60,626 nt of DNA from assembly GCA_000276965.1 (NCBI GenBank), contig AKKQ01000005.1, forward strand, positions 1 through 60,626, given 5' to 3'. The DNA comes from Thiovulum sp. ES (GTDB taxonomy: Bacteria > Campylobacterota > Campylobacteria > Campylobacterales > Thiovulaceae). Position 1 is the stretch's first letter. Each line of letters begins with the position of its first letter. A program made the translations under genes and the position numbers. Of this stretch, positions 7,973-32,339 are shown piece by piece. The notes beneath the pieces are model-generated. The model did not search any database, had not been told where the DNA came from, and saw only the letters and a program-made list of their open reading frames with translations.

Positions 7973-7974
7973 AT

Positions 7975-7988: not shown

Positions 7989-7993
7989 GAAAA

Positions 7994-8896: not shown

Positions 8897-8958
8897 CTTG
8901 TAAATTTAATTAAAAATTCTACCAAAAAAGGGAAATATAGATTTTTTGAGTTTAGAAG

Positions 8959-9046
8959 TGGCGGACAGAGAGGGATTCGAACCCTCGATAGCTTTCACTA
9001 TACTCGCGTTCCAGGCGAGCGCCTTCAACCACTCGGCCATCTGTCC
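8959..9046 (-). tRNA. tRNA-Ser (anticodon GGA), long variable arm, CCA encoded
   Basis: The reverse complement reads GGACAGATGGCCGAGTGGTTGAAGGCGCTCGCCTGGAACGCGAGTATAGTGAAAGCTATCGAGGGTTCGAATCCCTCTCTGTCCGCCA. Acceptor stem is GGACAGA/TCTGTCC, the anticodon loop is CTGGAAC, and a T-arm GGTTCGAATCC is present. Confidence 0.9.
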
Positions 9047-9089
9047 AAAAGTAGAAACGAATTCTACTCGAAAAAAGTTTATCTTTTAC

Positions 9090-9758
9090 TTAACTCCTTT
9101 TCATATTTGAGAAATAGACGAGAAAAAGAACAAAAAAACTTAAAAAAAGCATTATTCCGCTGTAAATATGAGCCGAGTTATAATCCATAACTTCTACAAA
9201 CTCATAAATAGAGACACTTGCCACTTTTGTCTCATTTGGAATACTTCCGCCAATCATAAGAACAACCCCAAATTCGCCAACTGTATGTGCAAATGTAACA
9301 ACAATTGCAGTTAAAAGCGATGGACGAATATTCGGTAAGGCGATTCGGAAAAGAGTTTCTAATTTGCTTTTTCCACTAATATAACTCGCCTCAAGCATAC
9401 TCTTGTCAAGCGACTGGAAACCACTTTGAAGAGGCTGAACCATAAAAGGCAAACTGTAAAAAACACTAGCAATAACAAGTCCAGAAAAAGTAAAAAGAAG
9501 ATTTAAATCAAAAACATCTTTTAAAAATTGACCAATTCCAGAATTTGGTGAAAGAGTTATTAAGATATAAAAACCGAGAACAGAAGGTGGTAAAACAATT
9601 GGTAAAGCTGTTAATGCTTCTAAAAAAGGTTTGATTTTACTCTCTGTTTGAGAAAGAAACCATGAAAAAGGTATGGAAAAAATCAATAAAAAAAGTGTTG
9701 TTATTGTTGCTAACTTGAATGAAATCCAAAACGGATAAAGCTCTAAATTTTCTAACAT
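9090..9758 (-). CDS. modB: molybdate ABC transporter permease
   Basis: 222 aa polytopic membrane protein. Has a ModB-like EAA loop (EASYISGKSKLETLFRIALPNIRPSL) and C-terminal GEFGVVLMIGGSIP. Confidence 0.75.
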   Translation of the reverse strand: MLENLELYPFWISFKLATITTLFLLIFSIPFSWFLSQTESKIKPFLEALTALPIVLPPSVLGFYILITLSPNSGIGQFLKDVFDLNLLFTFSGLVIASVFYSLPFMVQPLQSGFQSLDKSMLEASYISGKSKLETLFRIALPNIRPSLLTAIVVTFAHTVGEFGVVLMIGGSIPNETKVASVSIYEFVEVMDYNSAHIYSGIMLFLSFFVLFLVYFSNMKRS

Positions 9759-10312
9759 ATCTAAATTATAACGAATTTTTAATAATAAAAAATAATAATA
9801 TATGAACCTGAATCTTAAACATAAAAATTAAAAAAATTGGAAGAAAATTTACATAAAAATCTATTTTCGCTTAAATATCGATTTGAACGATATTTTGAAA
9901 GGGTCTAATATAAAAAATCCCAAGTGAAACACTTTTTGATTTTTCATGTTTCTTAAATAGATAAACTAAATATTTTATTTAAGAAACTCTAAAAATTGCT
10001 TCTGAAACTTAAATTTCTAGCCTTTTTGAAATCTATTTAAGAAAACTAGATTGGTTTTTCCAAGAAATACAAAAAATTGTATTTCTACTAAAAAAATATA
10101 GGCTATAAACTGAAGTCGTATTTTCGGGAAAAAGTGTCCTAAAATATGGGGTTATACTTTTTTGATTTCGAGTTTTCTTAAAATATAATGGCAATTTTAA
10201 TATTTAAGTTTAAAAGTGATTTTTTTGAAAAATTTAAATTAGATGTTTTATAATAAAATATAAATATAAAAAAGATAGTTTGAAGATTTGAAAAAAATTC
10301 TTTGATAAGATT

Positions 10313-15460: not shown

Positions 15461-17368
15461 TTAACTAATTGGAGTTCCAATTTTTCGCGGTTTTTCTGGA
15501 CGAATTAGTGAAAGTCCATTTTCATCTTTTCCAGCAAGAACCATTCCTTCAGACATGTGTCCCATCAATTTAGCAGGTTTGAGATTTGCAACTACACAAA
15601 CTTGAGTGTTTAAAAGTTCCTCTTTTTTGTAGTATTTACGAATTCCTGCAAGAATTTGTCGTGGTCGCTCTTCACCTAAATCAACTCTCATTTTATAAAG
15701 CTTGTCGCTTTTTGGCAACTCTTCAACTTCAATGATTTCACCGATCTTGATTTTTGTCTCAAAGAATTTATCAATTGTGATAACACCCTCAATTTTCAAC
15801 TCTTTCGGTTTCTCCTCTTTTTTCTCTTCCTGTTTCATTTTAGGTTTATCAACTCTTGGGAAAAGTGCAGAAACTTTTTGGATTTTAAATTCTGTTCGCA
15901 CATCTTTTTCAGTGATGATTTTTTTATAACTTTCAGCAGAAATTTCAACATTTAGAGCTTTTGCCATCTCTTCACCACTTTTTGGCATGATTGGATAAAT
16001 CAGGAGAGAAACACGAGAAAGAAGATTTGAGATGAAAACAAGTAGCGACTCGACCTCATCGGGATTTGTTTTGATTTTTGCCCAAGGTTCACTTTTTTGA
16101 ATAGCACCATTTCCAATTGCAAGAATTTCCCAAATATCTTCTAAATATCGGTGAATTTGCATTTTAAAAATATGCTTTTCAAGTCCGCTGATGATTTCAT
16201 CAACTTTCGCTAATTGGCTTTCAAACTCCCCTAAACTTGCGGAAAATTTGAGTAAAAAATATTTGTCTCCCATTCCAATTAAACGGTTTAAAAGATTTCC
16301 AAGTGAATTTCCTAAATCTCCATTGATACGATTAATAAGAGCTTTTTCAGAAAAATCCCCATCTTGACCAAACGGAACTTCACGAAGTAAAAAATATCTG
16401 AAAGTATCAATTCCGTAAGCATCAACAACTTCTCGAGGTTTTACGATATTTCCGACAGATTTGCTCATTTTTTGTCCATCTCGAGTCCACCAACCGTGTG
16501 CCGAAATATGATGAGGTAGAGGTAAATCCAAACTCATTAAAAATGCGGGCCAATAAATTGCATGGAATCTTAAAATATCTTTTCCAACAATATGAGTTTT
16601 TGCCGACCAAAAATCCATATTTTTTTCATCGTCGCCATAACCAAGTGCTGTAATATAATTTAGAAGTGCATCCAGCCAAACATACATAACATGATGAGGT
16701 TCGTTCATCGATTCTGGCAATTTAACACCCCAATCAAAACTTGTTCGCGAAATTGATAAATCCTTTAAACCACCCTGAACAAAAGAGATAATTTCATTTC
16801 TTTTTGAAGTTGGCAAAATAAATTCTGGATTTTTTTCGTAAAGTTCCAAAAGCTTATCTTCATAATTTGAGAGTCTGAAAAAGTAGCTCTCTTCTTCAAT
16901 TACTTTTGTCTCTTTTCCGCAATCTGGACAAGAATTTTCCCCAATCAGTTGTGTGTTTGTAAAAAAGCTCTCACATGAAATACAGTAATTTCCGCTATAT
17001 GAACCTTTGTAAATATCACCTTTTTGAAACATTTTCTCAAAAGCGATTTGAACACCTTTTTTGTGATAGTCGTCTGTGGTTCTTATAAAATGGTCATATT
17101 TGATTCCAAAATCATCCCAAAGTTGCTTAAATTTTCCAGAAATTTCGTCTGCATACTCTTTAGGGGTTCGACCTCGTTTTTTTGCACTCTCTTCAATTTT
17201 CTGACCGTGTTCGTCTGTTCCAGTTAGCAAAAAAGTTTCGTATCCGAGAAGTTTTGAATACCGAGAAACGGCATCCGCAATTATTGTTGTGTAGGCATGT
17301 CCGATATGTGCTTCATCATTCACATAGTAAATCGGAGTAGTTATATAAATTTTATTACAAGATGACAA
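15461..17368 (-). CDS. metG: methionine--tRNA ligase with C-terminal tRNA-binding (Trbp111-like) domain
   Basis: HIGH motif (AHIGHAY), KMSKS, a zinc knuckle CISCE...CPDCG, and a C-terminal OB-fold block KIGEIIEVEELPKSDKLYKMRVDLG. Confidence 0.95.
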   Translation of the reverse strand: MSSCNKIYITTPIYYVNDEAHIGHAYTTIIADAVSRYSKLLGYETFLLTGTDEHGQKIEESAKKRGRTPKEYADEISGKFKQLWDDFGIKYDHFIRTTDDYHKKGVQIAFEKMFQKGDIYKGSYSGNYCISCESFFTNTQLIGENSCPDCGKETKVIEEESYFFRLSNYEDKLLELYEKNPEFILPTSKRNEIISFVQGGLKDLSISRTSFDWGVKLPESMNEPHHVMYVWLDALLNYITALGYGDDEKNMDFWSAKTHIVGKDILRFHAIYWPAFLMSLDLPLPHHISAHGWWTRDGQKMSKSVGNIVKPREVVDAYGIDTFRYFLLREVPFGQDGDFSEKALINRINGDLGNSLGNLLNRLIGMGDKYFLLKFSASLGEFESQLAKVDEIISGLEKHIFKMQIHRYLEDIWEILAIGNGAIQKSEPWAKIKTNPDEVESLLVFISNLLSRVSLLIYPIMPKSGEEMAKALNVEISAESYKKIITEKDVRTEFKIQKVSALFPRVDKPKMKQEEKKEEKPKELKIEGVITIDKFFETKIKIGEIIEVEELPKSDKLYKMRVDLGEERPRQILAGIRKYYKKEELLNTQVCVVANLKPAKLMGHMSEGMVLAGKDENGLSLIRPEKPRKIGTPIS

Positions 17369-17494: not shown

Positions 17495-19117
17495 CTATTT
17501 TATAGAGAATGTTGAGAATATTTTGTTTTCTTTTATTTGTTTAGAAGTCGAAAGAAGCTCTTTTCCGTCGTGGTGAATTTTGATAATTCTGTTTTCGTCA
17601 AATTCCCAATCAAGCTGAATCGACTCATCTTTGTTGTAAAATTTATCAAGAGTGATAAATGCACCATCAATTTCTCGTAATTTGTGCTGATCTTTTGCAT
17701 CAACTCCGTAATAGAGAAAAATATCTGCTCGTTTTGTAGTTTCACTAAATTTAAAATTGTAAGTTCCAGTTTCGGGAGCTTTGACATCATGCGGAATCAA
17801 TTTCTCAAATCTTCTACCATTTCGGATAAAAATCGAGTCGCTCATGACATCGGTAATTTTGATTTTTTTCAATTTGTGATTATTAAAATTGTAGCTATGA
17901 ATTGAAGCACCTTTTGAAACTGCTTCTCGTTCAGTAAAATCAACAATCTTAGTTGTATTGCCGAAAAATTTACGAAGAGTCTCTTCAACAAGATAGAATT
18001 TACCAGAACCACCAGTAAGAATCACCATATCAATATCATCTTTTTGCAACTTTGACTTTTTGAGAGTATTGATAAGTGGCTGAAGAAGTTTCCCATTATT
18101 CGCGATGAGGTCGGATAAAATTTCTCGTAAGTTTTGATCATTCAGAGTCAAATCACGAATTGAGAGACCATCGATAATTTCAAAATTTACTGTTTCTCTT
18201 TTTCTCTGTTTTAATTTTGGATTCTCTGTGCTTGAAATCTTTTTTGAGAGTGAAACTTTGTGTCTTTCTGCATGAGAAACAATTCTTGAAACAATCACAG
18301 CTTGTTCTTCTGGAGTTCTAGCAGAAATAGACGGATTTATTTTTTCAAACTCTTCTAAGAAATAAGAGGCAATTCTTTTATCAATATCATCTCCACCAAA
18401 ATCCATTCGTTCTGAACGACCAAGAATTGAAATATCAAAATCGTCATCATCTAACAAGATGTTTGCAATCGAAATATCTAGTGTTCCTCCGCCAATATCA
18501 TAAACAAGGACTTTTCGGTTTTTATCAAAAAATTCATCTCCAAACTCAAAAGAGTTTTCAGAATTCAAAAAATACAATAAAACAGCTGTCGGTTCATCAA
18601 GCAAATTTACATGCTGAAAACCTGCAAGATGTCCAGCTTCAATTGTAGCTCGTCTCTCATCACTATTAAATCCAGCAGGAATTGTAATCGTAACAGCTTC
18701 AAAGTCGTCTGAACCGAGTTGTTGTTTTACAGAATCTCTTATTTGTTTCAAAAGAATTGAAGAGAGTTCAGTCATATCAAAAGATATTTTGTCATTTTTA
18801 TCATTTTGAAGAGGAACATCAATTTCGGATTCTCCACCAATTCGAGTCTTTACAGAACGAATAGTTTGGAGGGGCTTATGCCCGTCGCTGTAAATCTTTT
18901 TTGCAAACTCACCAACATAAATTGTCTCTGTTTCTCGATTGATGTAAATGCTTGATTGCAAACCATTCATATTTGTTACAGAGTTATGGCTAGAGTCGTG
19001 CTGGAAAATATTGAGACTTCTTAGTTTTTCCATTGGATTATCTCTCCGTCCAGAAATCTCAACAACTGATACAGTGCTTTCCGTAGTTCCTAAATCAATC
19101 CCAATACTATTTCCCAT
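17495..19117 (-). CDS. Hsp70-family ATPase paralog 4 (NBD plus beta-rich C-terminus, no helical lid)
   Basis: Phosphate-1 GIDLGTTEST, connect LDEPTAVLLYF, phosphate-2 VYDIGGGTLDIS. The adenosine motif is degenerate (LTGGSGKFYLV). The start overlaps the upstream gene by 11 nt. Confidence 0.8.
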   Translation of the reverse strand: MGNSIGIDLGTTESTVSVVEISGRRDNPMEKLRSLNIFQHDSSHNSVTNMNGLQSSIYINRETETIYVGEFAKKIYSDGHKPLQTIRSVKTRIGGESEIDVPLQNDKNDKISFDMTELSSILLKQIRDSVKQQLGSDDFEAVTITIPAGFNSDERRATIEAGHLAGFQHVNLLDEPTAVLLYFLNSENSFEFGDEFFDKNRKVLVYDIGGGTLDISIANILLDDDDFDISILGRSERMDFGGDDIDKRIASYFLEEFEKINPSISARTPEEQAVIVSRIVSHAERHKVSLSKKISSTENPKLKQRKRETVNFEIIDGLSIRDLTLNDQNLREILSDLIANNGKLLQPLINTLKKSKLQKDDIDMVILTGGSGKFYLVEETLRKFFGNTTKIVDFTEREAVSKGASIHSYNFNNHKLKKIKITDVMSDSIFIRNGRRFEKLIPHDVKAPETGTYNFKFSETTKRADIFLYYGVDAKDQHKLREIDGAFITLDKFYNKDESIQLDWEFDENRIIKIHHDGKELLSTSKQIKENKIFSTFSIK

Positions 19118-20420
19118 TTCTACTCTCCTTTTTCTCTTCAGAAGTTTCTACTTTTGTTTCGGGTTTTTCTGAACTTGTTTCAGAATTTTCAACTTTTACG
19201 ATTTCATCAACTTCAGCTTTTTCAACGACCTCATCGCCAATTTTGATAGCATGTTTTAGAATTTTGTAAGTTTTACCAATTTCAACATTTCCAAGAACAA
19301 CGAGCAAATCATCACTGTTTGTTTTTGTAACTTCGATTTCTTGATCAACTTCAAATTCAGTTTGCACAACATCACCAAAAACAGAAGAGACCTCTAAAAA
19401 CTTAGATGGAAAACTTTCGTGAAGTTGTTTTGCAAGTTCTAAGTTCTTTTTTTCCATTCCAATTTTTTCAGCTTTTGCAATCTCACTTTCTAACTCTTTT
19501 TTGTGTTTCTGTTCAACTTTTTGGAGGTTTTCCAAATCACCCTTTTTTGAAATATAAAGCCGAGAAATTTTTGAAAGTTCAGCTAAACCATCTCTCATAT
19601 ACTCCTCAAGTTCATCAATCGCTTTTTCCTCTTTTGGCACAACTGAATCTTTTTTAGCATCACTGTTTCCAATTTTTTCAGGCAATTCAGAAAGAGTTTT
19701 TTCCAAACTTTGGAGATTTTGCAATTGTCTTGTTTGCCCCTGAATTGACTCAACATTAGTAGAAAGCTCTTTCAATTTCTCTTCTAGTTTTTCTTCAAGA
19801 ACAAATTCAAAATCTTTAGATTTTAAATAGTCATTTGGGATTTTCATTTTTTGAGATTCAGGAAATTTGATTTGAGAAATTCTGTTTTTAATATCTGCTG
19901 TTTCATCAAAAACAGTTTTCTCAATATCTTTTTTCATATTTTCAACTTCAACTTTCCAAAAATCAAATTTTGGCATTGCATTTTTGATTTTTTTCAAAAG
20001 AGAGTTTTTATCATCTTCTTTTAAAACATCAGTGCTGTTTGCAACTTCATCAAGCAATTTGCCTTTTTGATCCAAATCTTTTTGCATTGCAACAAATTCT
20101 TTTTTTAAATATTCTTTGATTTCTTCTTTTAGTGTTCGTAAGTCATCTGAGACTCTTGCAAGTTCTAAGTTTTCGTTTGGTTCTTTGTTGTTCAGGTAAG
20201 TTTGTTCATCTTTTTGTCCTTCTGGTTTTTTAAATTTGCTGTATTTCTCATCTTTTTTATTTTGACTAGCCATTTTTTTTCCTTTAGTTTGATTTGGTCT
20301 TTTTGTTTCTTGTTGTTTTTCTACTTTTGAAATTGTATTTTCCGTAGCAGACTCTTTTTGTCCAAAAACTACATCAACTCCGAATTTAATCGGAGCTGTA
20401 ATAATTTTAAAAGGATTCAT
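19107..20420 (-). CDS. K/E-rich coiled-coil protein with a small beta-rich C-terminal domain
   Basis: 437 aa. Residues ~90-330 are long heptad-like charged helices. The C-terminal ~90 aa are beta-like (VVQTEFEVDQEIEVTKTN...GNVEIGKTYKILKHAIKIGDEVV). Overlaps both neighbouring genes. Confidence 0.6.
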   Translation of the reverse strand: MNPFKIITAPIKFGVDVVFGQKESATENTISKVEKQQETKRPNQTKGKKMASQNKKDEKYSKFKKPEGQKDEQTYLNNKEPNENLELARVSDDLRTLKEEIKEYLKKEFVAMQKDLDQKGKLLDEVANSTDVLKEDDKNSLLKKIKNAMPKFDFWKVEVENMKKDIEKTVFDETADIKNRISQIKFPESQKMKIPNDYLKSKDFEFVLEEKLEEKLKELSTNVESIQGQTRQLQNLQSLEKTLSELPEKIGNSDAKKDSVVPKEEKAIDELEEYMRDGLAELSKISRLYISKKGDLENLQKVEQKHKKELESEIAKAEKIGMEKKNLELAKQLHESFPSKFLEVSSVFGDVVQTEFEVDQEIEVTKTNSDDLLVVLGNVEIGKTYKILKHAIKIGDEVVEKAEVDEIVKVENSETSSEKPETKVETSEEKKESRNGK

Positions 20421-21913
20421 TGTTCGATTTCTTCAAATTCACCCCGAAGAACCTCGTTTTTGTTTTCATCGTAAAAGATGTAGCCAATTTCACCAGAGTC
20501 ATCATCTCGATAGAGTGAAAGGAAAATTGTATTTGATGGAAAAACTGTGCCGTCAATTGTTGCTTTTCCAATTTTTTCACACTCATCAATTTGCCCACTT
20601 TCACCCTCGTAAAATGAGAGAATAAAATCCTCTTTGAGATTAGAGTTTCCAATTCGTAATTTATATTCTGGAGAAATTTCACCGTAAGGGCTGTTTTTTC
20701 GTAGGATTTTTTGAAAACGGTTTCCAATTGCGACACCAACAGATTTACTTGTTTTTCTGATAACTGTATATTTTAGAGAGTCATCAACAGAAAGACCTGC
20801 CAAAATACCTGCACCGTGTCCAACAAGTTCCCCTAAGTTTTTTCGAGCTTCAGGTTCAAATCCGAAAAAATCACGAACAATATCTTTGATAATTGGAATT
20901 GAACTTGAACCACCAGCTAAAATCACTCGGTCAATATCAGATGGATCTAAATCAGCATCAGCAATTGCAATGTCAAGAGCATCTTCGATTTCACCAACAA
21001 TATTTGCAGTTCGTAGCCAATCTTCAAACTCATCTCGAGAGAGTTCTCGGTCAATAACTTTTGACTCATTATTTATACTCAAACCACCTTTGTAAATCTC
21101 AACTTCATCTTCTTCACTAAGGAGTTCTTTGTTTTCTCTTGCCTCTTTTAAAAGTTCTCTTTTAAGTATCTTTTGCTCTTTTTCAACTTGAATATCTGAA
21201 AGACTTATTTTTAAATCTTGTTCTAAAAACTTATTGACGATTTTTGCATCAATATTTTTACCTCCAAGTTTTTCAACTCCACCAGTATTTAAAACTTCGA
21301 TTTTTGCATGTTGCTTGTCATCTTTTTCAAACTTAAAAATAGTGAGATCAAAAGTTCCTCCCCCGAAATCAAAAACAACGATGTTCTCTTTCTTTCCATT
21401 CTCAATTTCATCACCAAAAACACCAAAAGAGATAGCAGCAGCAACAGGCTCTTCTACAAGTTTTATAACAGGTATTCCAGCATTTTCTGCCGATTTTTTG
21501 ATTCGTTTTCGATACTTATCTCCATAAGCATAGGGAACAGTGATAACAGCACCATCAATTTTTTTTCCACCATGAGTAGCTTCAACTTTTTCACGAATTC
21601 CTGTAAAAATCATCTCAGCAATATCTGAAGCTGTAACTTGACGATCACCTAAGTTTGGAACTCTCCACTTTTGGTTATCTGAAGTGATGTGTCTTTTTAC
21701 ATCATCAAAAAAGTTTAGAGTGTCATCCATTCGGTTTCTTTTTCCGAGAATATATTTTCCATCTCCCTCGATGTAAATCACATTGTCGAAAATATCACTA
21801 CCTGCATAGCTTCCCATATTTGCAACAGCAACAGCATCTTTTCTGACAAAGTCATATTTTGTTACAAAGTTTGTCGAGTTCCCAAAATCAATTCCAATAT
21901 ACAATTTATCCAT
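20417..21913 (-). CDS. Hsp70-family ATPase paralog 3
   Basis: Divergent phosphate-1 GIDFGNSTNF. VEEPVAAAISFG, VFDFGGGTFDLT and LAGGSSSIPII are present. The beta-sandwich-like C-terminus has no lid. 4-nt and 8-nt overlaps with neighbours. Confidence 0.8.
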   Translation of the reverse strand: MDKLYIGIDFGNSTNFVTKYDFVRKDAVAVANMGSYAGSDIFDNVIYIEGDGKYILGKRNRMDDTLNFFDDVKRHITSDNQKWRVPNLGDRQVTASDIAEMIFTGIREKVEATHGGKKIDGAVITVPYAYGDKYRKRIKKSAENAGIPVIKLVEEPVAAAISFGVFGDEIENGKKENIVVFDFGGGTFDLTIFKFEKDDKQHAKIEVLNTGGVEKLGGKNIDAKIVNKFLEQDLKISLSDIQVEKEQKILKRELLKEARENKELLSEEDEVEIYKGGLSINNESKVIDRELSRDEFEDWLRTANIVGEIEDALDIAIADADLDPSDIDRVILAGGSSSIPIIKDIVRDFFGFEPEARKNLGELVGHGAGILAGLSVDDSLKYTVIRKTSKSVGVAIGNRFQKILRKNSPYGEISPEYKLRIGNSNLKEDFILSFYEGESGQIDECEKIGKATIDGTVFPSNTIFLSLYRDDDSGEIGYIFYDENKNEVLRGEFEEIEQ

Positions 21914-22661
21914 TTACAATTCTCCACATATTTACTTTTCCGTCTGCAATTGCTCTATTTTCTGCAACCATGTAAGGAAATGAGATTACATTTTTAATTA
22001 CATGAGCTAGGTTTCTGTCTGTTGTGTTGCATTTATCACACTCTTCTGGCTGAATAAAATCATATTTTTTATCATCAAGTTTTTCACCAGCTTTTAATTC
22101 CAGAGTGAAAATTCCAATGTTTTTCAAGAATGAGTTGAAGATTTGTAAAACTTGCTGGTAAAACGGTTTTTCATCAATTCCACTTTCGAGAACTCTCACA
22201 ACTTCAGAAATAAAGCTAGAAAAGTTTTTATCAATTGCGATGAGGTACTCATCTGAAAGTTTTTGCAAATTCCAATTCTCATCTATCTTGAATTTTTTCA
22301 CTGCTGAAATTAATTTTCGTGTTCTGTTGTCAATTGTTTTGCCTATAATTTCGAGAGACTCAATTTCACTTTCTGAAAGTTGTTTTTCAACTCTGTCCAA
22401 AAAATCATCGAATTTCTCTGCAAAAGAATCAACTTCATCTAAAAATTTCTTTTTTTGACTTTCAAAATCATCATGAGATGTCGGTTTTCCAAAAAGAGAT
22501 TTTTCACCCTTTTCAATCATAAAAAGAGTTAAGTAATTCACATCTTTATCACTTTCAGAATCTTTTTGAACAATTGCAATTGGGCGAAAATGCCCAAAGT
22601 CTTTTGTTAAAATCTCATCAAACTTTTTATTTAGACTTACGATTTTGTCAAAGTTATACAT
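21906..22661 (-). CDS. GrpE-like putative nucleotide-exchange factor (start re-set to the MYNFDK ATG)
   Basis: The track ORF runs to 22769, but that extension lies inside the upstream gene. The ATG at 22661 gives an ATGTATAA overlap with the upstream stop. A helical N-terminal part is followed by FLKNIGIFTLELKAGEKLDDKKYDFIQPE and ...VISFPYMVAENRAIADGKVNMWRI. This resembles the GrpE four-helix-bundle/beta-domain junction. Similarity was judged by eye only. Confidence 0.4.
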   Translation of the reverse strand: MYNFDKIVSLNKKFDEILTKDFGHFRPIAIVQKDSESDKDVNYLTLFMIEKGEKSLFGKPTSHDDFESQKKKFLDEVDSFAEKFDDFLDRVEKQLSESEIESLEIIGKTIDNRTRKLISAVKKFKIDENWNLQKLSDEYLIAIDKNFSSFISEVVRVLESGIDEKPFYQQVLQIFNSFLKNIGIFTLELKAGEKLDDKKYDFIQPEECDKCNTTDRNLAHVIKNVISFPYMVAENRAIADGKVNMWRIVNG

Positions 22662-24672
22662 CTGAATTTCCTTTGATTGAAATATCTCGGCTATCAACTT
22701 TTGTGCCATCTCGGTGAAAAACTTCAGCAGAAACAAGAAGTGTGTCATCTCGACCAAGCTCAAACTCAACTCTAATTGTCAATTCTCCAGCTTTTGCTTT
22801 TGGAATTCCGCTAAATTGAATTGTGTCGATAAAATCAACTCCCTTGTCAAAAACTCTTGAACTTTTTCCAAAAACTCTTGAATTTCTGTTATAAATCTCC
22901 ACATTGATATTCTCTTGGTCATCTCGTTCAGTTTGGAAATCTTTTGTAAAACTAACTGGTAAATCTGTTCCCTCTGAAATCAACTCAAAAAATTGATGTC
23001 CTCGAATTGCAACTCCAAAATCTTTAATTGCTTCATCACTTTCAAAACTTTTATCATCAATTCCATCTTCAGAACCCCAAGTTCGTACAGCTTCAATAAC
23101 TCCACCTTTTGAAATAACGGTAGAAGTGTCTTGAGTGAAAGATGGAGTTTTGCCAAGAGTATCAATGAGAGAATCTCGAATACTTGGAATATTTGAGCTA
23201 CCACCAGCAAGAACGACCTCATCGATGTCATCAGCCATAAAATTGAGACCAGACATTAAATCTTTAACAACATCAAGAGCCTCTTTCCGAATTTCAGTAA
23301 TTGCGCTCTCAAACTCTCTTCGAGTAATTGTGTAGCTTAAATTTATATTTCCGTTTTGAGTTTTAAAATCAGAAATCTGAATTTCCGTTTGTTCAAATTC
23401 AGAGAGTTCAATTTTTGTATTTTCGGCAGAACTTAAAACAAAAGCAACATTTGTGTTGTAATCTTTTTCAGATAATTCACTCTCATCTTTGTCAAACATA
23501 TCAATATCATGTTCATCTAAAATTTTCTCAAAAATAAGTTCAGTCAATTTCTTTGTTACATCTTTTCCACCGAGTGAATTGTTTCCATTAGCACCAACAA
23601 CTTTAATATCAATATCTTTGCCGTTTTTCTCAGTTTCCAAAATTGAACAATCTAGTGTCCCGCCACCAAAATCAAAAACTAAAATTCGTTTGTCTGCTTC
23701 CGACTCAATTGCATAGGATAAACCAGCTGAAACAGGCTCTTTTTGGATACGAACTTCACCAAATCCTGCCTCTTCTCCAGCCTCTTTAATTATCGTGATT
23801 TGACTTGGATTGAAATTTGCAGGAACAGTAATTACAGCTTTTTCAATGTAATCTTTTAGATATTTCTCACTCTCCTCTTTTAAATGTTGCAAGAAAATTC
23901 TTGAAGCATCTTTTGGAGTAATTGTTAAATCACTGCTATTTTTTACTTGCTCTTTTCCTTTTAAAGCACGAAAATCAATAAGCGAAACTGTTTTAATTCC
24001 ACCAACAACATCTTCTGCTTTTACCTTTAAACCTTTGTCATTTGTAATCAAATATGTTTCTGGATTTAAATCTGTAAAAGTTTTAGCAATTGACAAAACA
24101 CGATTATCATTTTCACTGTTTTTCGTATCTTTTTCCAAGTCATCTGGCAAAATATCTAAATTGCTATCTTCAAAAAATATGTTTCCAGAATCTTTTAAGT
24201 CGTCAATACTTTTCATTGCCTCTTTTGCACTAACTTCGATATCTGGATTGTTTGCTAAATTGTGGAGTTCATCAACAACTTTATTTGGCAATCTCACAAA
24301 ATCCGACTTTCCAAACTCTTTTAAAATTTCAGGTGCATCAATAAAGATATTTGTATCAATTACAAAATTTATTTTAGTTTCGACCTCATCGCTATTAAAA
24401 GCAAAAGTATATTTTGTAGAACTTCCAATATCACTTTTAAACTCTTTTAGTAGGAGTTCTGGTTTTACTGCACCTTTTGCAATTGCTCTTGAACCAAAAA
24501 CGATCTTTTTTGAATCTTCAAAAAATAGTGCTGTTGGAATAATCTTTTTTTTCTTGAAAAGAACCTGCTCGATTTGTCCCTTGTCAAAATATGAGACGAC
24601 TGAATTTGTTGTTCCAAAATCTATTGAGATTGTTTTTCCATTTGCTTCTGTGAATTCTAACTCTTCTGCCAT
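22654..24672 (-). CDS. Hsp70-family ATPase paralog 2 with a PIN nuclease domain inserted in the NBD
   Basis: Hsp70 motifs SIDFGTTNS, AVITVPANF, QKEPVSAGLSY, VFDFGGGTLDCS and LAGGSSNIPSI. Residues ~101-236 form an insert with PIN-type acidic motifs: VIDTNIF, VVDELHNL, ENDNRVLSIA and ITNDKGLKVKA. Confidence 0.8.
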   Translation of the reverse strand: MAEELEFTEANGKTISIDFGTTNSVVSYFDKGQIEQVLFKKKKIIPTALFFEDSKKIVFGSRAIAKGAVKPELLLKEFKSDIGSSTKYTFAFNSDEVETKINFVIDTNIFIDAPEILKEFGKSDFVRLPNKVVDELHNLANNPDIEVSAKEAMKSIDDLKDSGNIFFEDSNLDILPDDLEKDTKNSENDNRVLSIAKTFTDLNPETYLITNDKGLKVKAEDVVGGIKTVSLIDFRALKGKEQVKNSSDLTITPKDASRIFLQHLKEESEKYLKDYIEKAVITVPANFNPSQITIIKEAGEEAGFGEVRIQKEPVSAGLSYAIESEADKRILVFDFGGGTLDCSILETEKNGKDIDIKVVGANGNNSLGGKDVTKKLTELIFEKILDEHDIDMFDKDESELSEKDYNTNVAFVLSSAENTKIELSEFEQTEIQISDFKTQNGNINLSYTITRREFESAITEIRKEALDVVKDLMSGLNFMADDIDEVVLAGGSSNIPSIRDSLIDTLGKTPSFTQDTSTVISKGGVIEAVRTWGSEDGIDDKSFESDEAIKDFGVAIRGHQFFELISEGTDLPVSFTKDFQTERDDQENINVEIYNRNSRVFGKSSRVFDKGVDFIDTIQFSGIPKAKAGELTIRVEFELGRDDTLLVSAEVFHRDGTKVDSRDISIKGNSDV

Positions 24673-24733
24673 TTTTTCCCTTTGCTTTGTTGTTTAAATT
24701 ATATTTTTTGGACAGGACAAAACCTGTCATTTA

Positions 24734-26716
24734 TTAAAAACTTTGTAGTGAGCTTGTGATTTTTTGGAAAATTGATGACAATTGACTAAAGTCCGAACCT
24801 GAATAGTAGTGTGCCGATGAGGTTGCAAGATTTCTCAAAAAGATTTCATCAACTCCATCACCAATTCCAATCGTGATTAGAGTTGTGTCAGATTTCATAT
24901 AATTCCCTTCACTCATTGCACTATCTTGCCAATCTGGATAGCCATCAGTAACAATAATTGCTAGTTTTTCATTTCTTGCTCCAGAAAGAACCTGTCTTGC
25001 CTGTTCAATTCCACTAGCCATATTTGTCGAGCCTCGACATTCAATATTTGAGATTCTGTATTGCAAATCACTTTGAGAATTTGAGAGATTTGAAACAACT
25101 GAAGCAGAGCTACCAAATTCAACAACACCAACATTGTGAGTATTCAAATCAATCATGTCAGAAACAAGAAGCTGACAAGCATTTTTTGCTTGTTGTATTG
25201 GAGTCCCACACATGCTTCCAGAAATATCAACAGTTAAAACAATGTCAAAAGATTTTTCGTATGTTTTTTTAACTCGTTTCACTGCACCTTTTTCAATATC
25301 AACAGCCTCTTTTCTGCTACTTCCAGTTCTCACATCTTGTGCCGTAACATGTAAAATTCTGTTTTCGTCAAACTCAAAAGTAACATCGATTTGTGGAACT
25401 CCAGCAGGTGCTTTTTCAATATTTGAGAGAGAGAAACCTCCGTAATAATCATTCATATTTACATCAGAATCTTCACCCTCGAAAATCTCAATCTGAATTT
25501 CTGGTTGGTAATTTGAGACAGTTGTGTATCTTTTTGTAAATGAGATTGGGTATTGCTGATTTTTTTTCAAAATTGCTGAAAATTCATCATTCACCATTTC
25601 AATACCGAGTGAGTGAGAAATGATGTCGATAATTTGAATGCTGTCTCCAGAGTTTGCAGTAAGAGAAGCACCCATTGCTACAAGTTTGTCAAGTGGTTTA
25701 TCCGAAAAAGGTTGTTTCCCAAAAAAGTTTGTAACAAATTTTTGAACGGCAGGAATTCGTGAGCTACCACCAACAAGAACAACTTTATCAATATCATTTA
25801 TAGAAAAACCTCCGTTTGAAAGAGTATTTTCAATTGTGTTTTCAATTTTTCGGAGTGTATTTTTTGCGATTTTTTCAAATTCAGCACGAGTCAAATTCAT
25901 AGAGAGGGAATAACCACCAAAAAGATTTGGGATTTCAATCTCACTGTTTTCAGCATCAGAAAGTGCAATTTTTGTCTCTTCAGCATATTTCAGAATTGTT
26001 TGCCGAGCTTTTCTATATTCATCCTGTGGAAGTCCCGATTTTTTCAATGAAGATAAATCTGTTCCGTGATCTTTTCGGATATGTTTAAAAACTGCTTCGA
26101 TAATGTGATTGTCAAAATCATCACCACCGAGTCGATTGTCTCCGTCAAGTGCCAGAGTTTGGAATTTTCCTGCTGAAACTTGTAGAATTGAAGTATCAAA
26201 AGTTCCTCCACCAATATCTACAATAAATAGCTTTTCGTTTGCTCCACTCTCAAAACCGTAAGCAATTGCTGCTGCAACTGGTTCGGTAATAATTTGCTTG
26301 ACTTTAAAACCAGCATTTTCACCTGCTCGTTTTGTCTCATCAATTTGTGAAGATTTAAAATAAGCAGGAACAGTAATAACTGCTTCGACCTCATCGTTAC
26401 CAGTATGTTTTTTAATTCCTTTTTTGATTTCACTCAAAATTTCTGTTGCCACATCAGTTGGTGAAAAAGTTCTATCTTCAATTTTCCAACTTTTTTTCAT
26501 GTCGCCCATAAATGTCTTGGACGAACTGATATAATTTTCTGGATTTGTTAAAGATCGTTTTTTTGCAGAATCACCAATTCTAACTTTTCCACTTTCGTAA
26601 TACAAAACAGATGACAAACTTTCCAATCTACCAAATTTGATTTGCTCAAAATTTCCTCTATCGAAAATTGTTGCCACACTGTTTGTTGTTCCTAAATCAA
26701 TACCTACTTTTATCAT
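24734..26716 (-). CDS. Hsp70-family ATPase paralog 1 fused to a C-terminal vWA (MIDAS) domain
   Basis: Canonical GIDLGTTNS, ITEPVAAAIAYG, IVDIGGGTFDTS and LVGGSSRIPAV, plus an SBD-beta-like segment. Residues ~490-657 carry DISGSM...GSTNM...IIVTDGYPD, a complete DxSxS-T-D MIDAS. Confidence 0.85.
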   Translation of the reverse strand: MIKVGIDLGTTNSVATIFDRGNFEQIKFGRLESLSSVLYYESGKVRIGDSAKKRSLTNPENYISSSKTFMGDMKKSWKIEDRTFSPTDVATEILSEIKKGIKKHTGNDEVEAVITVPAYFKSSQIDETKRAGENAGFKVKQIITEPVAAAIAYGFESGANEKLFIVDIGGGTFDTSILQVSAGKFQTLALDGDNRLGGDDFDNHIIEAVFKHIRKDHGTDLSSLKKSGLPQDEYRKARQTILKYAEETKIALSDAENSEIEIPNLFGGYSLSMNLTRAEFEKIAKNTLRKIENTIENTLSNGGFSINDIDKVVLVGGSSRIPAVQKFVTNFFGKQPFSDKPLDKLVAMGASLTANSGDSIQIIDIISHSLGIEMVNDEFSAILKKNQQYPISFTKRYTTVSNYQPEIQIEIFEGEDSDVNMNDYYGGFSLSNIEKAPAGVPQIDVTFEFDENRILHVTAQDVRTGSSRKEAVDIEKGAVKRVKKTYEKSFDIVLTVDISGSMCGTPIQQAKNACQLLVSDMIDLNTHNVGVVEFGSSASVVSNLSNSQSDLQYRISNIECRGSTNMASGIEQARQVLSGARNEKLAIIVTDGYPDWQDSAMSEGNYMKSDTTLITIGIGDGVDEIFLRNLATSSAHYYSGSDFSQLSSIFQKITSSLQSF

Positions 26717-26776
26717 TCATCTTCCCTTTAAATTTTCAGAATTGTAAAGTCCTTGACGGACTATGATTGTCTAAAA

Positions 26777-28126
26777 CTAGACTCTTCTTTGTAAAAACTC
26801 AATTAGTTTATAGTGTCTATATCTTTGTGAAAAAGTTTCTGTGTTTCTATGTCGCGAATGAAGTTCAACAAGGTTGTTTCCAATTTGATCGATGAGGTCT
26901 TTTGGCAAACCATTAATTTGTTGAAAAATTTTGTAGTTTCCAATATTCCGTGCAAAATGGTAAGCCAGAACTTTTTTAACTCTCCCATCTCCACCATGTG
27001 AATTTACAATCTGTTTAACAAGAGAAGTGTTTCTTTCCAAGTTTCGACTTAAATAATACAAACGAGCAATATTAAATTGTGGATTTCCATTCAACTTATT
27101 TAAAAATTCTTTCAATGAATTAAAGCCTGATGAATCACTCCAGTTTTCAATACTTTCAACAACTTTTTGTTCTTTATCTGAAAAAGAGACTCCTTGATTC
27201 TTTAATTCTGAAATAATGTTTTGTGCTTTTTCTTTACTTTTAAACCTCGGTGGTTCAAGCATTTGTATAAAAAGTCCTTTCATACTCAAAAAATCATAAT
27301 CTGTGTAAGCATCTACAATCTCATCTTCAAAAGAGTTCAGTTTATGGAATTTAGATAGAACTCCACGAACAAGAAAAGGAAGCATATTTTTATCATGTGA
27401 ATTGTTTGCAATAAACTCCATAAGTGCATCAAATCCATCTTCACCGAGATGTTCTAATGATTTAAACCAAATTGCATCTCTGTCTTTGTCATTTTTGTTT
27501 TCTAAAATCCAATTTGCAATATCTCTTTTATCTGAAAGAAGTGTAAAAATACTCTGAAAAAATTGAGAATCTTTTGTTTTGGTGTAATTAAAGATTTCGG
27601 GATTCTTCTTGAATTCACTTTCCAAAAATTGAGGTAAAAGATGCTCTTTTGTTTTCATGTAATCTTTGACAATTCTCTCAAAGCATTCAGTTCGAGATTC
27701 AACCATTTCTGATTTGTTGGCAAAAGTCTTTTTACAATCGTCGAGAGAAGCTTTTTCATTGTAAAGACTGTTGAGAAATTCACGAAAATTTGTATCTGCA
27801 TAAATATTGTTTTCAACAACATCTTTTGAAATTTCTGTGAAATATTGTGGGGGAAGAGATAGGAGTGTCTTTTTGAAAAAATCTTTCACATTTTTGTTTT
27901 GAAAGAAATTTTCTTTAATCAGCCAACTGTTTTTAAGTAAAACTTTGCTGAAGATCTTTGTCCCGTGTTTTTGGGAGAGTGTTTTTAAATCCTGTATTGA
28001 GCTATTTGAGATAGCTTTTCGTATCACTTCATTATCATTTTTACTGATATATAAAGTGTTATCCTTTTCAAAACGGAGGTCGAGAGCTTTTTCCACTTTT
28101 GAGAGTGTTTCCATGCAAGTCTCCAA
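26777..28126 (-). CDS. hypothetical all-helical protein heading the Hsp70 cluster
   Basis: 449-aa ORF, same strand, 60 nt upstream of the Hsp70-vWA gene. No motif I can recognise. The repetitive helical character suggests an ARM/HEAT-like scaffold. Confidence 0.5.
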   Translation of the reverse strand: METCMETLSKVEKALDLRFEKDNTLYISKNDNEVIRKAISNSSIQDLKTLSQKHGTKIFSKVLLKNSWLIKENFFQNKNVKDFFKKTLLSLPPQYFTEISKDVVENNIYADTNFREFLNSLYNEKASLDDCKKTFANKSEMVESRTECFERIVKDYMKTKEHLLPQFLESEFKKNPEIFNYTKTKDSQFFQSIFTLLSDKRDIANWILENKNDKDRDAIWFKSLEHLGEDGFDALMEFIANNSHDKNMLPFLVRGVLSKFHKLNSFEDEIVDAYTDYDFLSMKGLFIQMLEPPRFKSKEKAQNIISELKNQGVSFSDKEQKVVESIENWSDSSGFNSLKEFLNKLNGNPQFNIARLYYLSRNLERNTSLVKQIVNSHGGDGRVKKVLAYHFARNIGNYKIFQQINGLPKDLIDQIGNNLVELHSRHRNTETFSQRYRHYKLIEFLQRRV

Positions 28127-28456: not shown

Positions 28457-29284
28457 CTAATCGACTTTTGAGAGAATCGACTCTTTTACAACTTTAAATC
28501 TATCCATAATATTTCCCTCAACTGTTCCGACATCTGAAGAGAGAATTACTCCGCCTCGAGAAATTGCACTATCTAAAATAATTTTAACATTCTCCATTTT
28601 TGATAGTGAAGTTTTTAAATCATCAATATCTCCACTATTTGCATGAATTGTAATTTCTGTCGCTTCATTTAAACTTTTGATAAGAGATTTTGAGAGATTT
28701 ATCGCAACTTGACCGCTATTAAAACTAATTTCACCAGTTAAAACCTCTTTTGCAATTGCAATTGATGTATGAACAAGCTCTTTTTCAAAATTCTCTGAAA
28801 GACTCTCAAATTGAGTTGAAATTGTTTCCAATTTTTTCATTGAATTCCCAAGCCGTTCTAAATTTTGATGATACTTATTTTCATTATTTCTTTCAGCTTG
28901 TAAAATTCCATCATGAACACCTCTTTGGTAAGAATCGTGCTTGATACTTTTTAATTCTGCTTGAAAAAGCTGTTCTTGATTATCAAGTTTGCCTCTTAAA
29001 CTAGCAATTTCATTTGTTAGAATTTCGCTTTTTTGAATTAGAGTCTCAATTAGTTCATCTCGTTTTCTAACAGATTCATTTTCAGAGCTTTGCTTCTGTT
29101 TTACTGGTTCATTTTTTGTTGGAAGTCCAGCTTGAAAATCTTCACTCTCTTTTTTTTCTGGTTGTCTAATTTGAGTTTTTAAAAATGGCTGAAAATCTGT
29201 TCCGCCTTTTGATTCATCTAAATCTACAAATGAAAATTGGACAATTTCGTGTTTCTCTTTGTGGTTTTCTAAAACGACGCCCAT
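28457..29284 (-). CDS. fliH: flagellar export apparatus protein FliH
   Basis: Charged coiled N-terminal half. FliH-type C-terminus (AKEVLTGEISFNSGQVA...ISRGGVILSSDVGTVEGNIMDRF). Confidence 0.65.
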   Translation of the reverse strand: MGVVLENHKEKHEIVQFSFVDLDESKGGTDFQPFLKTQIRQPEKKESEDFQAGLPTKNEPVKQKQSSENESVRKRDELIETLIQKSEILTNEIASLRGKLDNQEQLFQAELKSIKHDSYQRGVHDGILQAERNNENKYHQNLERLGNSMKKLETISTQFESLSENFEKELVHTSIAIAKEVLTGEISFNSGQVAINLSKSLIKSLNEATEITIHANSGDIDDLKTSLSKMENVKIILDSAISRGGVILSSDVGTVEGNIMDRFKVVKESILSKVD

Positions 29285-29672: not shown

Positions 29673-30173
29673 ATGGCTAACCAAAGCAGAAGAGCTTTTA
29701 TGGGTAAGGTTCTTGGTGCAACGGCTGGTGTTGGTGCGGTTGCATCTCTCTATGCCATGAAACGAACTTGGGATCCACTTCCTAGTGTTATTAGTGCAGG
29801 TTTCACAACTGTTGATTTATCTCCTCTTGAGGCCGGAAAACTTTCTATTATTAAATGGAGAGGAAAACCAGTTTTCTTGTTAAAACATACTCCAGATATT
29901 CAGACTGATACAGCAAGAGATATTGTAATCGGTGAAGATAGATACACTGTTGTTATCGGTCTTTGTACTCACCTTGGTTGTATTCCTGAATGGAAAGAGG
30001 GTGAAAAGATTTTCCACTGTGCTTGTCATGGAGGTCAATATGATCCACATGCACGACAAACTTTTGGACCTCCACCGAGACCACTTGATATTCCTCCGTT
30101 CTCTTTAAATGGAACTTCTCTTACTCTTGGCGATGAAGGCGAAGAGTATAAAAAAATGATGACAATGGCTTAA
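29673..30173 (+). CDS. petA: ubiquinol-cytochrome c reductase Rieske iron-sulfur subunit
   Basis: Tat-type signal SRRAFMGK. Rieske boxes CTHLGC and CACHGG. Confidence 0.95.
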   Translation: MANQSRRAFMGKVLGATAGVGAVASLYAMKRTWDPLPSVISAGFTTVDLSPLEAGKLSIIKWRGKPVFLLKHTPDIQTDTARDIVIGEDRYTVVIGLCTHLGCIPEWKEGEKIFHCACHGGQYDPHARQTFGPPPRPLDIPPFSLNGTSLTLGDEGEEYKKMMTMA

Positions 30174-30185
30174 AGGTAATTTTTT

Positions 30186-31442
30186 ATGGCACATTTTACA
30201 AAAGCAAATAGTGTTGGAGAGTGGTTAGACCAAAGACTAAACACAACAATGCTCACAAAAGTCATGATGACTGAGTATTGGATTCCAAAAGATATTAACT
30301 TCCTCTGGGCAATGGGAATGATCCTTGCCTTTACTTTCAAAATCCTCTTAATTTCTGGTATTTTCTTACTTATGTATTACAAGCCAGATGTTAATATGGC
30401 ATTTGACTCTGTAAATTACACAATTATGCAAGAAGTTGGCTACGGTTGGCTATTCCGACATATTCATGCCGTTGGTGCTTCTGTTGTATTCCTTGTAATC
30501 TATATTCATATGTTTACTGGTATTTACTACGGTTCATACAAAAAAGGTAGAGAGATGATCTGGTTAAGTGGTATGCTACTTCTAGTTCTTTTCTCTGCTG
30601 AAGCATTCTCTGGATATATGCTACCTTGGGGACAAATGAGTTACTGGGCTGCTTATGTAATTACAAACATTTTTGGTGGAATCCCATTTATTGGTGATGA
30701 GCTTGTTGTTTGGATTCGAGGTAACTTTTATGTAGCTGATGCAACTCTTACAAGATTCTTTATGCTTCATGTTCTTCTAGTTCCACTTGCAATTCTTGGT
30801 GGTATCGCATTCCACTTCTATACTTTAAGAATTCCGCATGTTAATAACCAAAAAGGTGAAGAGCTAGACTTTGAAAAAGAGGCTGAAATCTATAAAGAGG
30901 GACACAAAAAAAGAAGTAAAATCATTCCTTTCTGGCCTGTATTTATGGCAAAAGATGTTTTCGTTCTTTCTGTTTTCCTATTCTTCTTCTTCTACTTAGT
31001 TTTCTATAACTATAGTTTTGCAATGGATCCAGTGAATTTTGACCCAGCAAACGGTTTAAAAACTCCTGCACACATCTATCCAGAATGGTATTTCCTTTGG
31101 AGTTACGAAGTTCTTAGAGGATTCTTCTTCGATATTGGTCCTTTCAAAGCTGCGGATATTGGTCTTGCTGCATTTGGATTTGCTCAAATTATTCTTGCTC
31201 TTATTCCTTGGTTAGATAGAAGCCCAACAGTTGCACCTGCAAGTCAAAGACCTTATTTTAAAGTTTGGTTCTGGGTTATGATTATAATCATGATTATTCT
31301 TACAATTTATGGAAAACTTCCTCCAACAGGAACAAATGCATGGATCGGGTTCTACTCAAGTATCGCATTTATTCTACTTTTCCTACTTTTACCAGTGGTA
31401 ACAATTATGGAGAGAAAGAAAACAGCAGGAGGTAACAAATAA
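30186..31442 (+). CDS. petB: cytochrome b subunit of the bc1 complex
   Basis: Polytopic, 418 aa. Cytochrome b blocks WLFRHIHAVGAS, PWGQMSYWAA and IYPEWYFLW. Confidence 0.95.
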   Translation: MAHFTKANSVGEWLDQRLNTTMLTKVMMTEYWIPKDINFLWAMGMILAFTFKILLISGIFLLMYYKPDVNMAFDSVNYTIMQEVGYGWLFRHIHAVGASVVFLVIYIHMFTGIYYGSYKKGREMIWLSGMLLLVLFSAEAFSGYMLPWGQMSYWAAYVITNIFGGIPFIGDELVVWIRGNFYVADATLTRFFMLHVLLVPLAILGGIAFHFYTLRIPHVNNQKGEELDFEKEAEIYKEGHKKRSKIIPFWPVFMAKDVFVLSVFLFFFFYLVFYNYSFAMDPVNFDPANGLKTPAHIYPEWYFLWSYEVLRGFFFDIGPFKAADIGLAAFGFAQIILALIPWLDRSPTVAPASQRPYFKVWFWVMIIIMIILTIYGKLPPTGTNAWIGFYSSIAFILLFLLLPVVTIMERKKTAGGNK

Positions 31443-32305
31443 TGAAAGAATTAAAAATCTTTGGTGTAATTGTTTTCTTTACACTTTTTACATATTGGGG
31501 AGTTGAGCCGTATGCACACTCAATTTTCCACCCACATGTTGAACCTGCTGATTTTGAATTCACAGACCTACCAAAAGTAGAGGCTACTGGCGATGTTGCA
31601 AACGGTAAAGCTCAAGTTGAGATGAACTGTGTTGCTTGTCATGGAATCGAATCTGAAGGTATCAATGCTCCACTTGACAATCAAACTGCTAACATGAGTT
31701 ACGGTGTTGTTCCTCCAGATTTATCTCTTGCAGGGAAAATCTACAATGCAAATTTCCTAGCTAATTTCATCAAAAATCCTGAAGTTGCTACAAAAACTGC
31801 ACACAAATTTTCTGAAGCTGGAAAAGTTCACCCAATGCCTGGTTATGCTTGGATGTCTGATTCTGATATAGCTTCTATTGTTGCTTACCTTCAAGATGTT
31901 GCTAACAGAAAAGTTGAAAAAGATGGTTTAACTGATAAAGAAGTTTTTGAAAATGCTTGTGGTCGATGCCATAACATGAAATATGCGAAAATTGAAGCGA
32001 CAAGTGATGTTTCAAACTATATGGGTTCAACTCCTCCAGATTTATCAGTAATGATTATTTCACGAGGACACCATTATCTTGAAACTTTCATTAATGATCC
32101 TCAAAAACACCTTCACGGAACAGCAATGCCACGAGTTGGTTTAACTGAAGAGGCTCAGGCTCAAGTTATTGCTTACATGGAAGCTACTGGAGATTCTAAG
32201 AAAGAAGAGAGAGAAGCACTTGCTCCTTTAGTTCTTGGTTTCTTAGCAATCATGGCAGTTCTTTCATACTTCTGGAAAAAAGAAGTTTGGGACGAAGTTA
32301 AGTAA
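31442..32305 (+). CDS. petC: diheme cytochrome c subunit of the bc1 complex (epsilonproteobacterial type)
   Basis: Two CxxCH sites (CVACHG, CGRCHN), an N-terminal TM segment and a C-terminal anchor. The start overlaps the petB stop. Confidence 0.9.
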   Translation: MKELKIFGVIVFFTLFTYWGVEPYAHSIFHPHVEPADFEFTDLPKVEATGDVANGKAQVEMNCVACHGIESEGINAPLDNQTANMSYGVVPPDLSLAGKIYNANFLANFIKNPEVATKTAHKFSEAGKVHPMPGYAWMSDSDIASIVAYLQDVANRKVEKDGLTDKEVFENACGRCHNMKYAKIEATSDVSNYMGSTPPDLSVMIISRGHHYLETFINDPQKHLHGTAMPRVGLTEEAQAQVIAYMEATGDSKKEEREALAPLVLGFLAIMAVLSYFWKKEVWDEVK

Positions 32306-32320
32306 TTAACAAATTCCTCT

Positions 32321-32336
32321 TTCCCCTTTCGGGGAA
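32321..32336. terminator. hairpin between convergent petC and the FGE-domain gene
   Basis: ttcccc-tttc-ggggaa followed by an A-run. Plausible bidirectional terminator. Confidence 0.4.
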
Positions 32337-32339
32337 AAA

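Follow-up and report, generated by a model that had tools for sequence, protein, structure and literature searches.

Four lidless Hsp70 paralogs with built-in PIN and vWA domains in a mobile operon of Thiovulum sp. ES, a candidate bacterial conflict system

We describe a cluster of seven genes in Thiovulum sp. ES (Campylobacterota, family Thiovulaceae), located in a stretch of 60,626 nucleotides that comprises positions 1 to 60,626 of the forward strand of contig AKKQ01000005.1 (GenBank assembly GCA_000276965.1); this whole stretch is referred to as the window. The list of open reading frames (ORFs), their translations and Pfam searches place the seven genes in one direction on the minus strand at 17495-28114, with metG on one side and fliH on the other. 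The same co-oriented layout had been proposed in an initial annotation made from the letters of the window, and the ORF calls and Pfam results agree with it. The genes, here designated W1 to W7, are listed below in the order of transcription, where NBD stands for the nucleotide-binding domain and SBDbeta for the substrate-binding beta domain of Hsp70.

26777-28114, minus strand: W1, 445 amino acids, conserved system component, confidently predicted as an all-alpha HEAT/ARM-like solenoid; no Pfam match
24734-26716, minus strand: W2, lidless Hsp70 (NBD and SBDbeta, residues 1-477) with a C-terminal vWA domain (491-651)
22654-24672, minus strand: W3, lidless Hsp70 whose NBD lobe IB is interrupted at residues ~103-220 by a PIN_4 (PhoH2-type) RNase domain
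21906-22661, minus strand: W4, 251 amino acids from start M37 at 22661, putative and divergent GrpE-like nucleotide-exchange factor
20417-21913, minus strand: W5, 498-amino-acid lidless Hsp70, NBD 1-~383 followed by SBDbeta to the end
19107-20420, minus strand: W6, 437-amino-acid coiled-coil protein, conserved in its C-terminal region
17495-19117, minus strand: W7, 540-amino-acid lidless Hsp70

The domain assignments of the Hsp70-type proteins come from Pfam profiles. W2 matches HSP70 (PF00012) over residues 4-477 with an E-value of 1.7e-110 and VWA (PF00092) over residues 491-651 with an E-value of 5.4e-23; W3 matches HSP70 (E 3.8e-65) and, over residues 103-220, PIN_4 (PF13638, E 1.2e-16); and W5 and W7 match HSP70 with E-values of 3.9e-58 and 6e-50, respectively. 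The NCBIfam and PHROGs results for the seven proteins are consistent with those from Pfam. Four Hsp70s, one fused to vWA and one carrying an inserted PIN domain, had been recognized in the initial annotation, and the profile searches recover all of these features. The strength of the E-values, together with a gene order shared by at least 10 independent loci (described below), places the operon well beyond chance. Actin-like filament proteins of the MreB, ParM or FtsA type were considered as an alternative identity for the Hsp70 proteins and rejected, as the HSP70 scores lie far above those of MreB and FtsA and the proteins also contain the substrate-binding beta domain.

Alignment with canonical DnaK reveals that W2, W3, W5 and W7 all stop after the substrate-binding beta domain, with neither the helical lid nor the C-terminal tail; the vWA domain occupies the position of the lid in W2, and the PIN domain enters W3 in lobe IB of the NBD, after the KRxIG helix. 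Invariant in all four proteins are the phosphate-1 motif GxDxGTT, K70, the EPxAAA motif of the E171 region, DxGGGTxD and GGS(S/T)xIP. The alignment thus bears out the earlier description of lidless Hsp70s that retain the actin-fold motifs, and since the catalytic motifs are intact the four ATPases look catalytically competent. The candidate catalytic acidic residues of the W3 PIN domain (D106, E135, D178, D189 and D212) are invariant in 4 homologs, and the metal ion-dependent adhesion site (MIDAS) of the W2 vWA domain, consisting of D497-x-S499-x-S501 (with S or T at 499 across homologs), T590 and D591, is intact and invariant in nine homologs. The PIN family supplies the nucleases of VapC toxins and of numerous defence systems.

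The assignment of W4 as GrpE-like has moderate support and draws on several kinds of comparison. W4 has no Pfam match at threshold; weak matches to the Pfam GrpE profile are found across seven W4 homologs, the best with an E-value of 6e-4. Residues 77-198 align by BLAST, collinearly and weakly (E 0.12), with residues 30-148 of the canonical GrpE of the host, including a 'GxKLxD' stretch, and a feature neighbour of W4 in the ESM Atlas belongs to a GrpE cluster (0.88). A predicted complex of two W4 copies with the W5 NBD scored 0.63 compared to 0.00 for the best control and places the contacts on lobes IB and IIB, i.e., at the GrpE site, which we read as a sign of GrpE-likeness rather than as proof of binding. 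The AlphaFold model of W4 alone is of low confidence, and a fold search with this low-confidence model returned only generic helix bundles and did not recover GrpE. Taken together, the weak profile matches, the collinear alignment, the Atlas neighbour and the predicted contact site lend moderate support to the 'GrpE-like' label of the initial annotation, with W4 as a putative, highly divergent nucleotide-exchange factor.

The AlphaFold2 model of W1 is all-helical with a mean predicted local distance difference test (pLDDT) score of 82. Its nearest folds by Foldseek are beta-catenin and HEAT solenoids (template modelling (TM) scores of ~0.25-0.28), and its neighbours in the ESM Atlas are HEAT-repeat clusters (TM ~0.45). 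Homologs of W1, of which the search database holds ~44 strong ones, are confined to these operons. For W6, searches with seven homologs gave no Pfam family even at an E-value of 10, and the Atlas search gave weak leads only; the gene is retained across the operons.

The junctions from W3 to W7 are overlaps of 4-11 nucleotides of the ATGA type, read at base level as follows.

22654-22661, minus strand: overlap of W3 stop and W4 start, ATGTATAA
21906-21913, minus strand: overlap of W4 stop and W5 start, ATGGATAA
20417-20420, minus strand: overlap of W5 stop and W6 start, ATGA
19107-19117, minus strand: overlap of W6 stop and W7 start, ATGGGAAATAG

The gaps between W1 and W2 and between W2 and W3 are ~60 nucleotides, and the downstream gene of each pair has its own ribosome-binding site. 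The ORF of W1 opens with TTG at 28126; in the base-level reading its true start is the ATG at 28114, which is served by a GGAGA ribosome-binding site. The overlaps on which the initial annotation had based translational coupling are therefore confirmed, whereas the stoichiometric complex that it derived from them is something we can only infer from such overlaps.

The genome of the host (2.08 Mb in 206 contigs, 96.7% complete) holds a canonical dnaK with adjoining grpE on contig C9, as well as four DnaJ proteins elsewhere. Because of these separate canonical genes the operon in the window is not the housekeeping chaperone operon. We accordingly rejected dnaK-grpE-dnaJ as its identity, as had the initial annotation, every paralog in the window being lidless and, as also stated there, none of the seven genes encoding a J-domain protein. 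A search of the window for the CIRCE heat-shock element (controlling inverted repeat of chaperone expression) with up to 3 mismatches found none. The operon shares with the DnaK-GrpE-DnaJ machinery the phosphate-1, phosphate-2 and adenosine motifs of the Hsp70 NBD, the catalytic K70/E171 region, the substrate-binding beta domain and, putatively, a GrpE-like exchange factor (here W4, predicted to contact lobes IB and IIB). It differs in that four paralogs stand together without helical lid, C-terminal tail or J-domain protein, in that a vWA domain replaces the lid in W2 and a PIN RNase domain sits in lobe IB of W3, and in that the operon is mobile and patchy in distribution in a host that retains its own grpE-dnaK. 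As a separate observation, the canonical dnaK on C9 (locus L001) has an insertion of ~270 nucleotides at ~2743-3014, after 'DLGGKVA*', with in-frame resumption at '...GTFDVTVLEIG'; an assembly error, an intron-like element and pseudogenisation are all conceivable explanations of this interruption.

The operon recurs in other genomes with the same gene order. In Candidatus Thiovulum stygium (loci L008 and L023) the identities for W1 to W7 are 37, 68, 55, 46, 61, 29 and 58%, respectively. A genome of the same genus (G401, locus L021) contains a PD-(D/E)XK (PDDEXK_2) transposase inside the operon at 8689-9537, between the Hsp70-vWA and Hsp70-PIN genes, and in another genus of the same family (G403, locus L022) the operon has MCP/GGDEF and radical SAM genes as its neighbours. 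The order is also the same in a gammaproteobacterial metagenome-assembled genome (L011), with a DDE transposase upstream and a dynamin GTPase downstream; in Photobacterium phosphoreum (L012) and P. carnosum (L024); in an alphaproteobacterial metagenome contig carrying a protein labelled Robiginitomaculum sp. (L025), where a dynamin, a Type I restriction-modification specificity subunit, IIGP-like GTPases and a Cas_NE0113 protein lie upstream; and in two further metagenome contigs (L031 and L032), the latter bordered by an ISL3 transposase and, at its other end, by a DUF87/HerA ATPase that is followed by Fic and a phage integrase (L032 11350-17926). Intestinibacter bartlettii (Firmicutes, L026) has a rearranged version without vWA and with DUF87 upstream (L026 1-1755), and incomplete versions are found in Cetobacterium and Selenomonadaceae. 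We also note that a DUF87/HerA-like ATPase adjoins the operon in two unrelated settings, namely L032 and L026.

Within the Campylobacterota the distribution is narrow: W1 is present in 4 of 6 close relatives and in 0 of 400 genomes of the phylum sampled outside the host family. The insertion sites differ even within one family, being metG/fliH in the window, DnaB/aminotransferase in Thiovulum and MCP-GGDEF/radical SAM in G403. The changing positions and the count of 0 in 400 are not those of a strictly syntenic core locus; such a locus, with a demonstrated housekeeping role and no effect on phage or plasmids, is what the initial annotation had named as an argument against its own proposal. The operon is horizontally transferred between bacteria. 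Among 50,697 phage and 72,556 plasmid records W1 and W3 have no match beyond generic Hsp70, and the viral contigs of IMG/VR yielded no close and no confirmed relatives of the Hsp70-PIN protein.

In three of about 12 loci W1 adjoins a dynamin-like GTPase of ~806 amino acids, perhaps an accessory component of the operon that is specific to certain lineages; DynA, a dynamin, is an anti-phage protein (PMC8844932). These genes lie directly beside the operon at the following positions.

L024 (P. carnosum), 7572-9992: dynamin-like GTPase
L025 (Robiginitomaculum sp.-labelled contig), 7572-9992: dynamin-like GTPase
L011 (gammaproteobacterial genome), 20668-21992: dynamin-like GTPase

Among the models of PADLOC-DB v2.0, the only ones to match any of the seven proteins were of the PDC-M61B type, with weak and partial matches in the Hsp70 portions of W2, W5 and W7 (E-values of 1e-7 to 3e-4). 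The comparison with this collection, one of the checks listed in the initial annotation, thus identifies no named defence system and leaves a weak resemblance of three Hsp70s to a candidate model, PDC-M61B; a literature search for PDC-M61 gave a passing mention only. Several published conflict systems nevertheless make use of Hsp70-type domains, and the parts of the operon can be compared with theirs. CoCoNuT restriction systems contain Hsp70-like domains, and in their Type III, which is proposed to target RNA, units resembling the NBD and the substrate-binding domain of Hsp70 (CnuD, or CnuCD with McrBC-like CnuBC) are combined with an RNase in a multi-gene operon, as in the window (PMC11090510). 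The motifs of CnuD are described as degenerate (PMC11090510), whereas the catalytic motifs of the window Hsp70s are intact; moreover, Pfam, NCBIfam and PHROGs find neither a McrB-like GTPase (CnuB) nor McrC/DUF2357 (CnuC) in the seven window proteins, the operon is without HEPN, cold-shock domains and coiled-coil nuclease tandems, and its RNase is a PIN domain located within an Hsp70.

The DO-GTPase/GAP1-N2 conflict systems share with the operon a module of HSP70 and a GrpE-type exchange factor as well as a second Hsp70 in truncated form (Kaur et al. 2020, PMC7159879), but DO-GTPase, GAP1, tubulin and FNIII-DnaJ are absent from the operon, and none of the seven window proteins has a GTPase domain. 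The dynamins beside only 3 of the about 12 loci are not DO-GTPases, and the window operon differs further in having four Hsp70 paralogs, one with PIN and another with vWA. Lidless DnaK-like domains in a defence context have been described as fusions to EACC1-protease modules, where they are proposed to act as misfolding sensors (10.1101/2025.11.14.688446). In contrast, the window operon has no EACC1, caspase-like protease or peptidase domain, its candidate effector is the PIN RNase, and its Hsp70s are separate paralogs with an exchange factor of their own. A similar logic, in which a chaperone-like switch driven by nucleoside triphosphates is combined with a peptide-binding vWA/MIDAS co-factor and an effector, is found in the MoxR-vWA (VMAP) ternary systems (PMC7159879); the switch in the window operon is Hsp70 instead of a MoxR AAA+ ATPase, there is no AAA+ domain and no VMAP component, and the vWA domain is fused to an Hsp70. 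Since the defining parts of CoCoNuT, DO-GTPase, EACC1 and VMAP systems are each absent, we rejected these identities, and none of the four named systems compared here matches the operon, in line with the suspicion of the initial annotation. Its architecture therefore seems to be new and undescribed, although its functional kind is known; the libraries and literature that we searched hold no name for the combination of four Hsp70s with PIN and vWA.

We tentatively interpret the operon as a mobile conflict system based on Hsp70, most likely an anti-phage system of the abortive-infection type in which the cycle of Hsp70 and exchange factor gates the PIN RNase; our confidence in this interpretation falls a little short of even. 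It is favoured because of the set of parts, the patchy spread across phyla, the changing insertion sites and the mobile and defence-related neighbours. A conflict system had been suggested in the initial annotation, and the patchy distribution, the varying sites, these neighbours and the published Hsp70 analogies go some way towards that suggestion. In the mechanism that we propose, the four lidless Hsp70s would sense exposed hydrophobic polypeptide, e.g., unfolded or abundant phage proteins, in an ATP-driven manner, with nucleotide exchange driven by W4. The vWA domain of W2, in place of the lid, would allow a partner or substrate to be gripped in a metal-dependent way, and W1 with its HEAT-like repeats and the coiled-coil protein W6 would probably provide the scaffold of the complex or participate in target sensing. 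Engagement would shift lobe IB of W3, which carries the PIN domain and would also be bound by the GrpE-like factor, so that the PIN active site is released or assembled, and the ensuing cleavage of tRNA or mRNA would arrest the growth of the infected cell. A more far-reaching version, which we consider rather doubtful, is that the operon represents a chaperone-based form of innate immunity: the assembly of four Hsp70s would detect a flood of unfolded or foreign polypeptide via SBDbeta, ATP turnover driven by the GrpE-like factor would lead to RNA cleavage by PIN and abortive infection, and folding stress would be the danger signal. Some eukaryotic immune pathways make a similar use of Hsp70.

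Several results weigh against this interpretation. No named defence system was identified with PADLOC-DB v2.0, and the neighbourhoods are divided: mobile and defence genes accompany the operon in other genomes, whereas in the window and in Thiovulum its flanks are core genes (metG, fliH, DnaB and aminotransferases) and not known defence systems. The intact catalytic motifs of the Hsp70s suit a working chaperone equally well as a switch, and the predicted complex of W4 with the NBD may mirror a resemblance to the known GrpE-DnaK complex and not true binding.

A rival explanation is a specialised proteostasis network, in which the lidless Hsp70s and the GrpE-like factor of the operon would fold or hold a particular client, or act under a particular stress, and PIN would be a regulatory RNase, e.g., one that autoregulates the operon mRNA. 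Intact ATPase and peptide-binding beta domains, a GrpE-like W4 and the core-gene surroundings in the window and in Thiovulum all fit such a network, and specialised Hsp70 systems of the HscA/HscB type do exist. We nevertheless consider it unlikely, as every copy is without a lid and no J-domain protein accompanies them, one of the chaperones contains a nuclease, the operon turns up in distant phyla at shifting positions, mobile elements and defence islands adjoin it elsewhere, and the CIRCE element was not found in the window. Quite improbable, in our estimate, is an addiction module resembling toxin-antitoxin systems, i.e., a selfish element in which the PIN toxin of W3 is kept inactive in the Hsp70 assembly and is set free once the operon is lost or the complex disrupted. 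PIN is the typical RNase of VapC toxins, the operon is mobile, and tight translational coupling would fit a fixed ratio of proteins as in toxin-antitoxin pairs; however, seven genes and about 10.6 kb are very large for such a system, the operon contains no small antitoxin gene and multi-domain ATPases would have to act as the antitoxin, and the toxin is fused within a chaperone instead of being encoded separately. With intact ATPase motifs and a position among core genes in the window, the operon leaves some weight to the proteostasis and addiction readings.

The operon could also ride on integrative elements as a counter-defence or superinfection-exclusion module, encoded by a phage or other element and protecting not the cell but the element that carries it. 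In some contigs the operon lies close to a phage integrase or to transposases, which points in this direction, whereas the phage and plasmid records, in which W1 and W3 were unmatched beyond generic Hsp70, and the viral contigs of IMG/VR with no close relatives make it very improbable. If, on the other hand, the conflict-system interpretation is true, the link from sensing to effector would be made by the Hsp70 machinery itself and not by a STAND, AAA+ or GTPase switch, and, with a nuclease inserted in the ATPase domain of an Hsp70, the Hsp70 allosteric cycle would gate an enzyme instead of protein folding. It would then be testable whether substrate binding by Hsp70, i.e., the load of misfolded or foreign protein, triggers a bacterial immune response, and the operon would add another eukaryote-like chaperone or switch module to those recruited to prokaryotic immunity.

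The remaining features of the operon's surroundings in the window are a possible promoter and the two flanking genes. The promoter is a consensus match only, and the operon region is not enriched in promoter-like matches over shuffled sequence. A search for sequencing runs that could show expression listed none.

28229-28202, minus strand: candidate sigma-70 promoter, perfect TTGACA-16-TATAAT, 90 nucleotides upstream of W1
15461-17368: metG, flank of the operon, tRNA-synt_1g (Pfam)
28457-29284: fliH, upstream flank of W1, FliH (PF02108, E 5.6e-17, Pfam)

The upstream flank had been taken for a fragment of a KilA-N gene, of a family said to adjoin McrBC elsewhere in the window. The FliH match contradicts the former, and the KilA-N protein sits instead at 273-989, where its neighbour is not McrBC but an Eco57I-like Type IIG restriction-modification enzyme. 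The start of the window forms a restriction island (273-6585) in which the KilA-N protein is followed by an AAA_21/SMC_N ATPase at 1455-2786 and then, at 2776-6585, by the Type IIG enzyme, an Eco57I/MmeI-like protein of 1269 amino acids with a TaqI_C specificity domain; this island is probably the source of the supposed McrBC link. A 220-amino-acid ORF rich in Ser and Phe lies antisense within W3 (24035-24697, plus strand) and is probably a spurious frame. Beyond fliH, the region 29673-34439 encodes Rieske, cytochrome b and cytochrome c proteins of a qcrABC-like bc complex, followed by a 699-amino-acid protein with an FGE-sulfatase domain.

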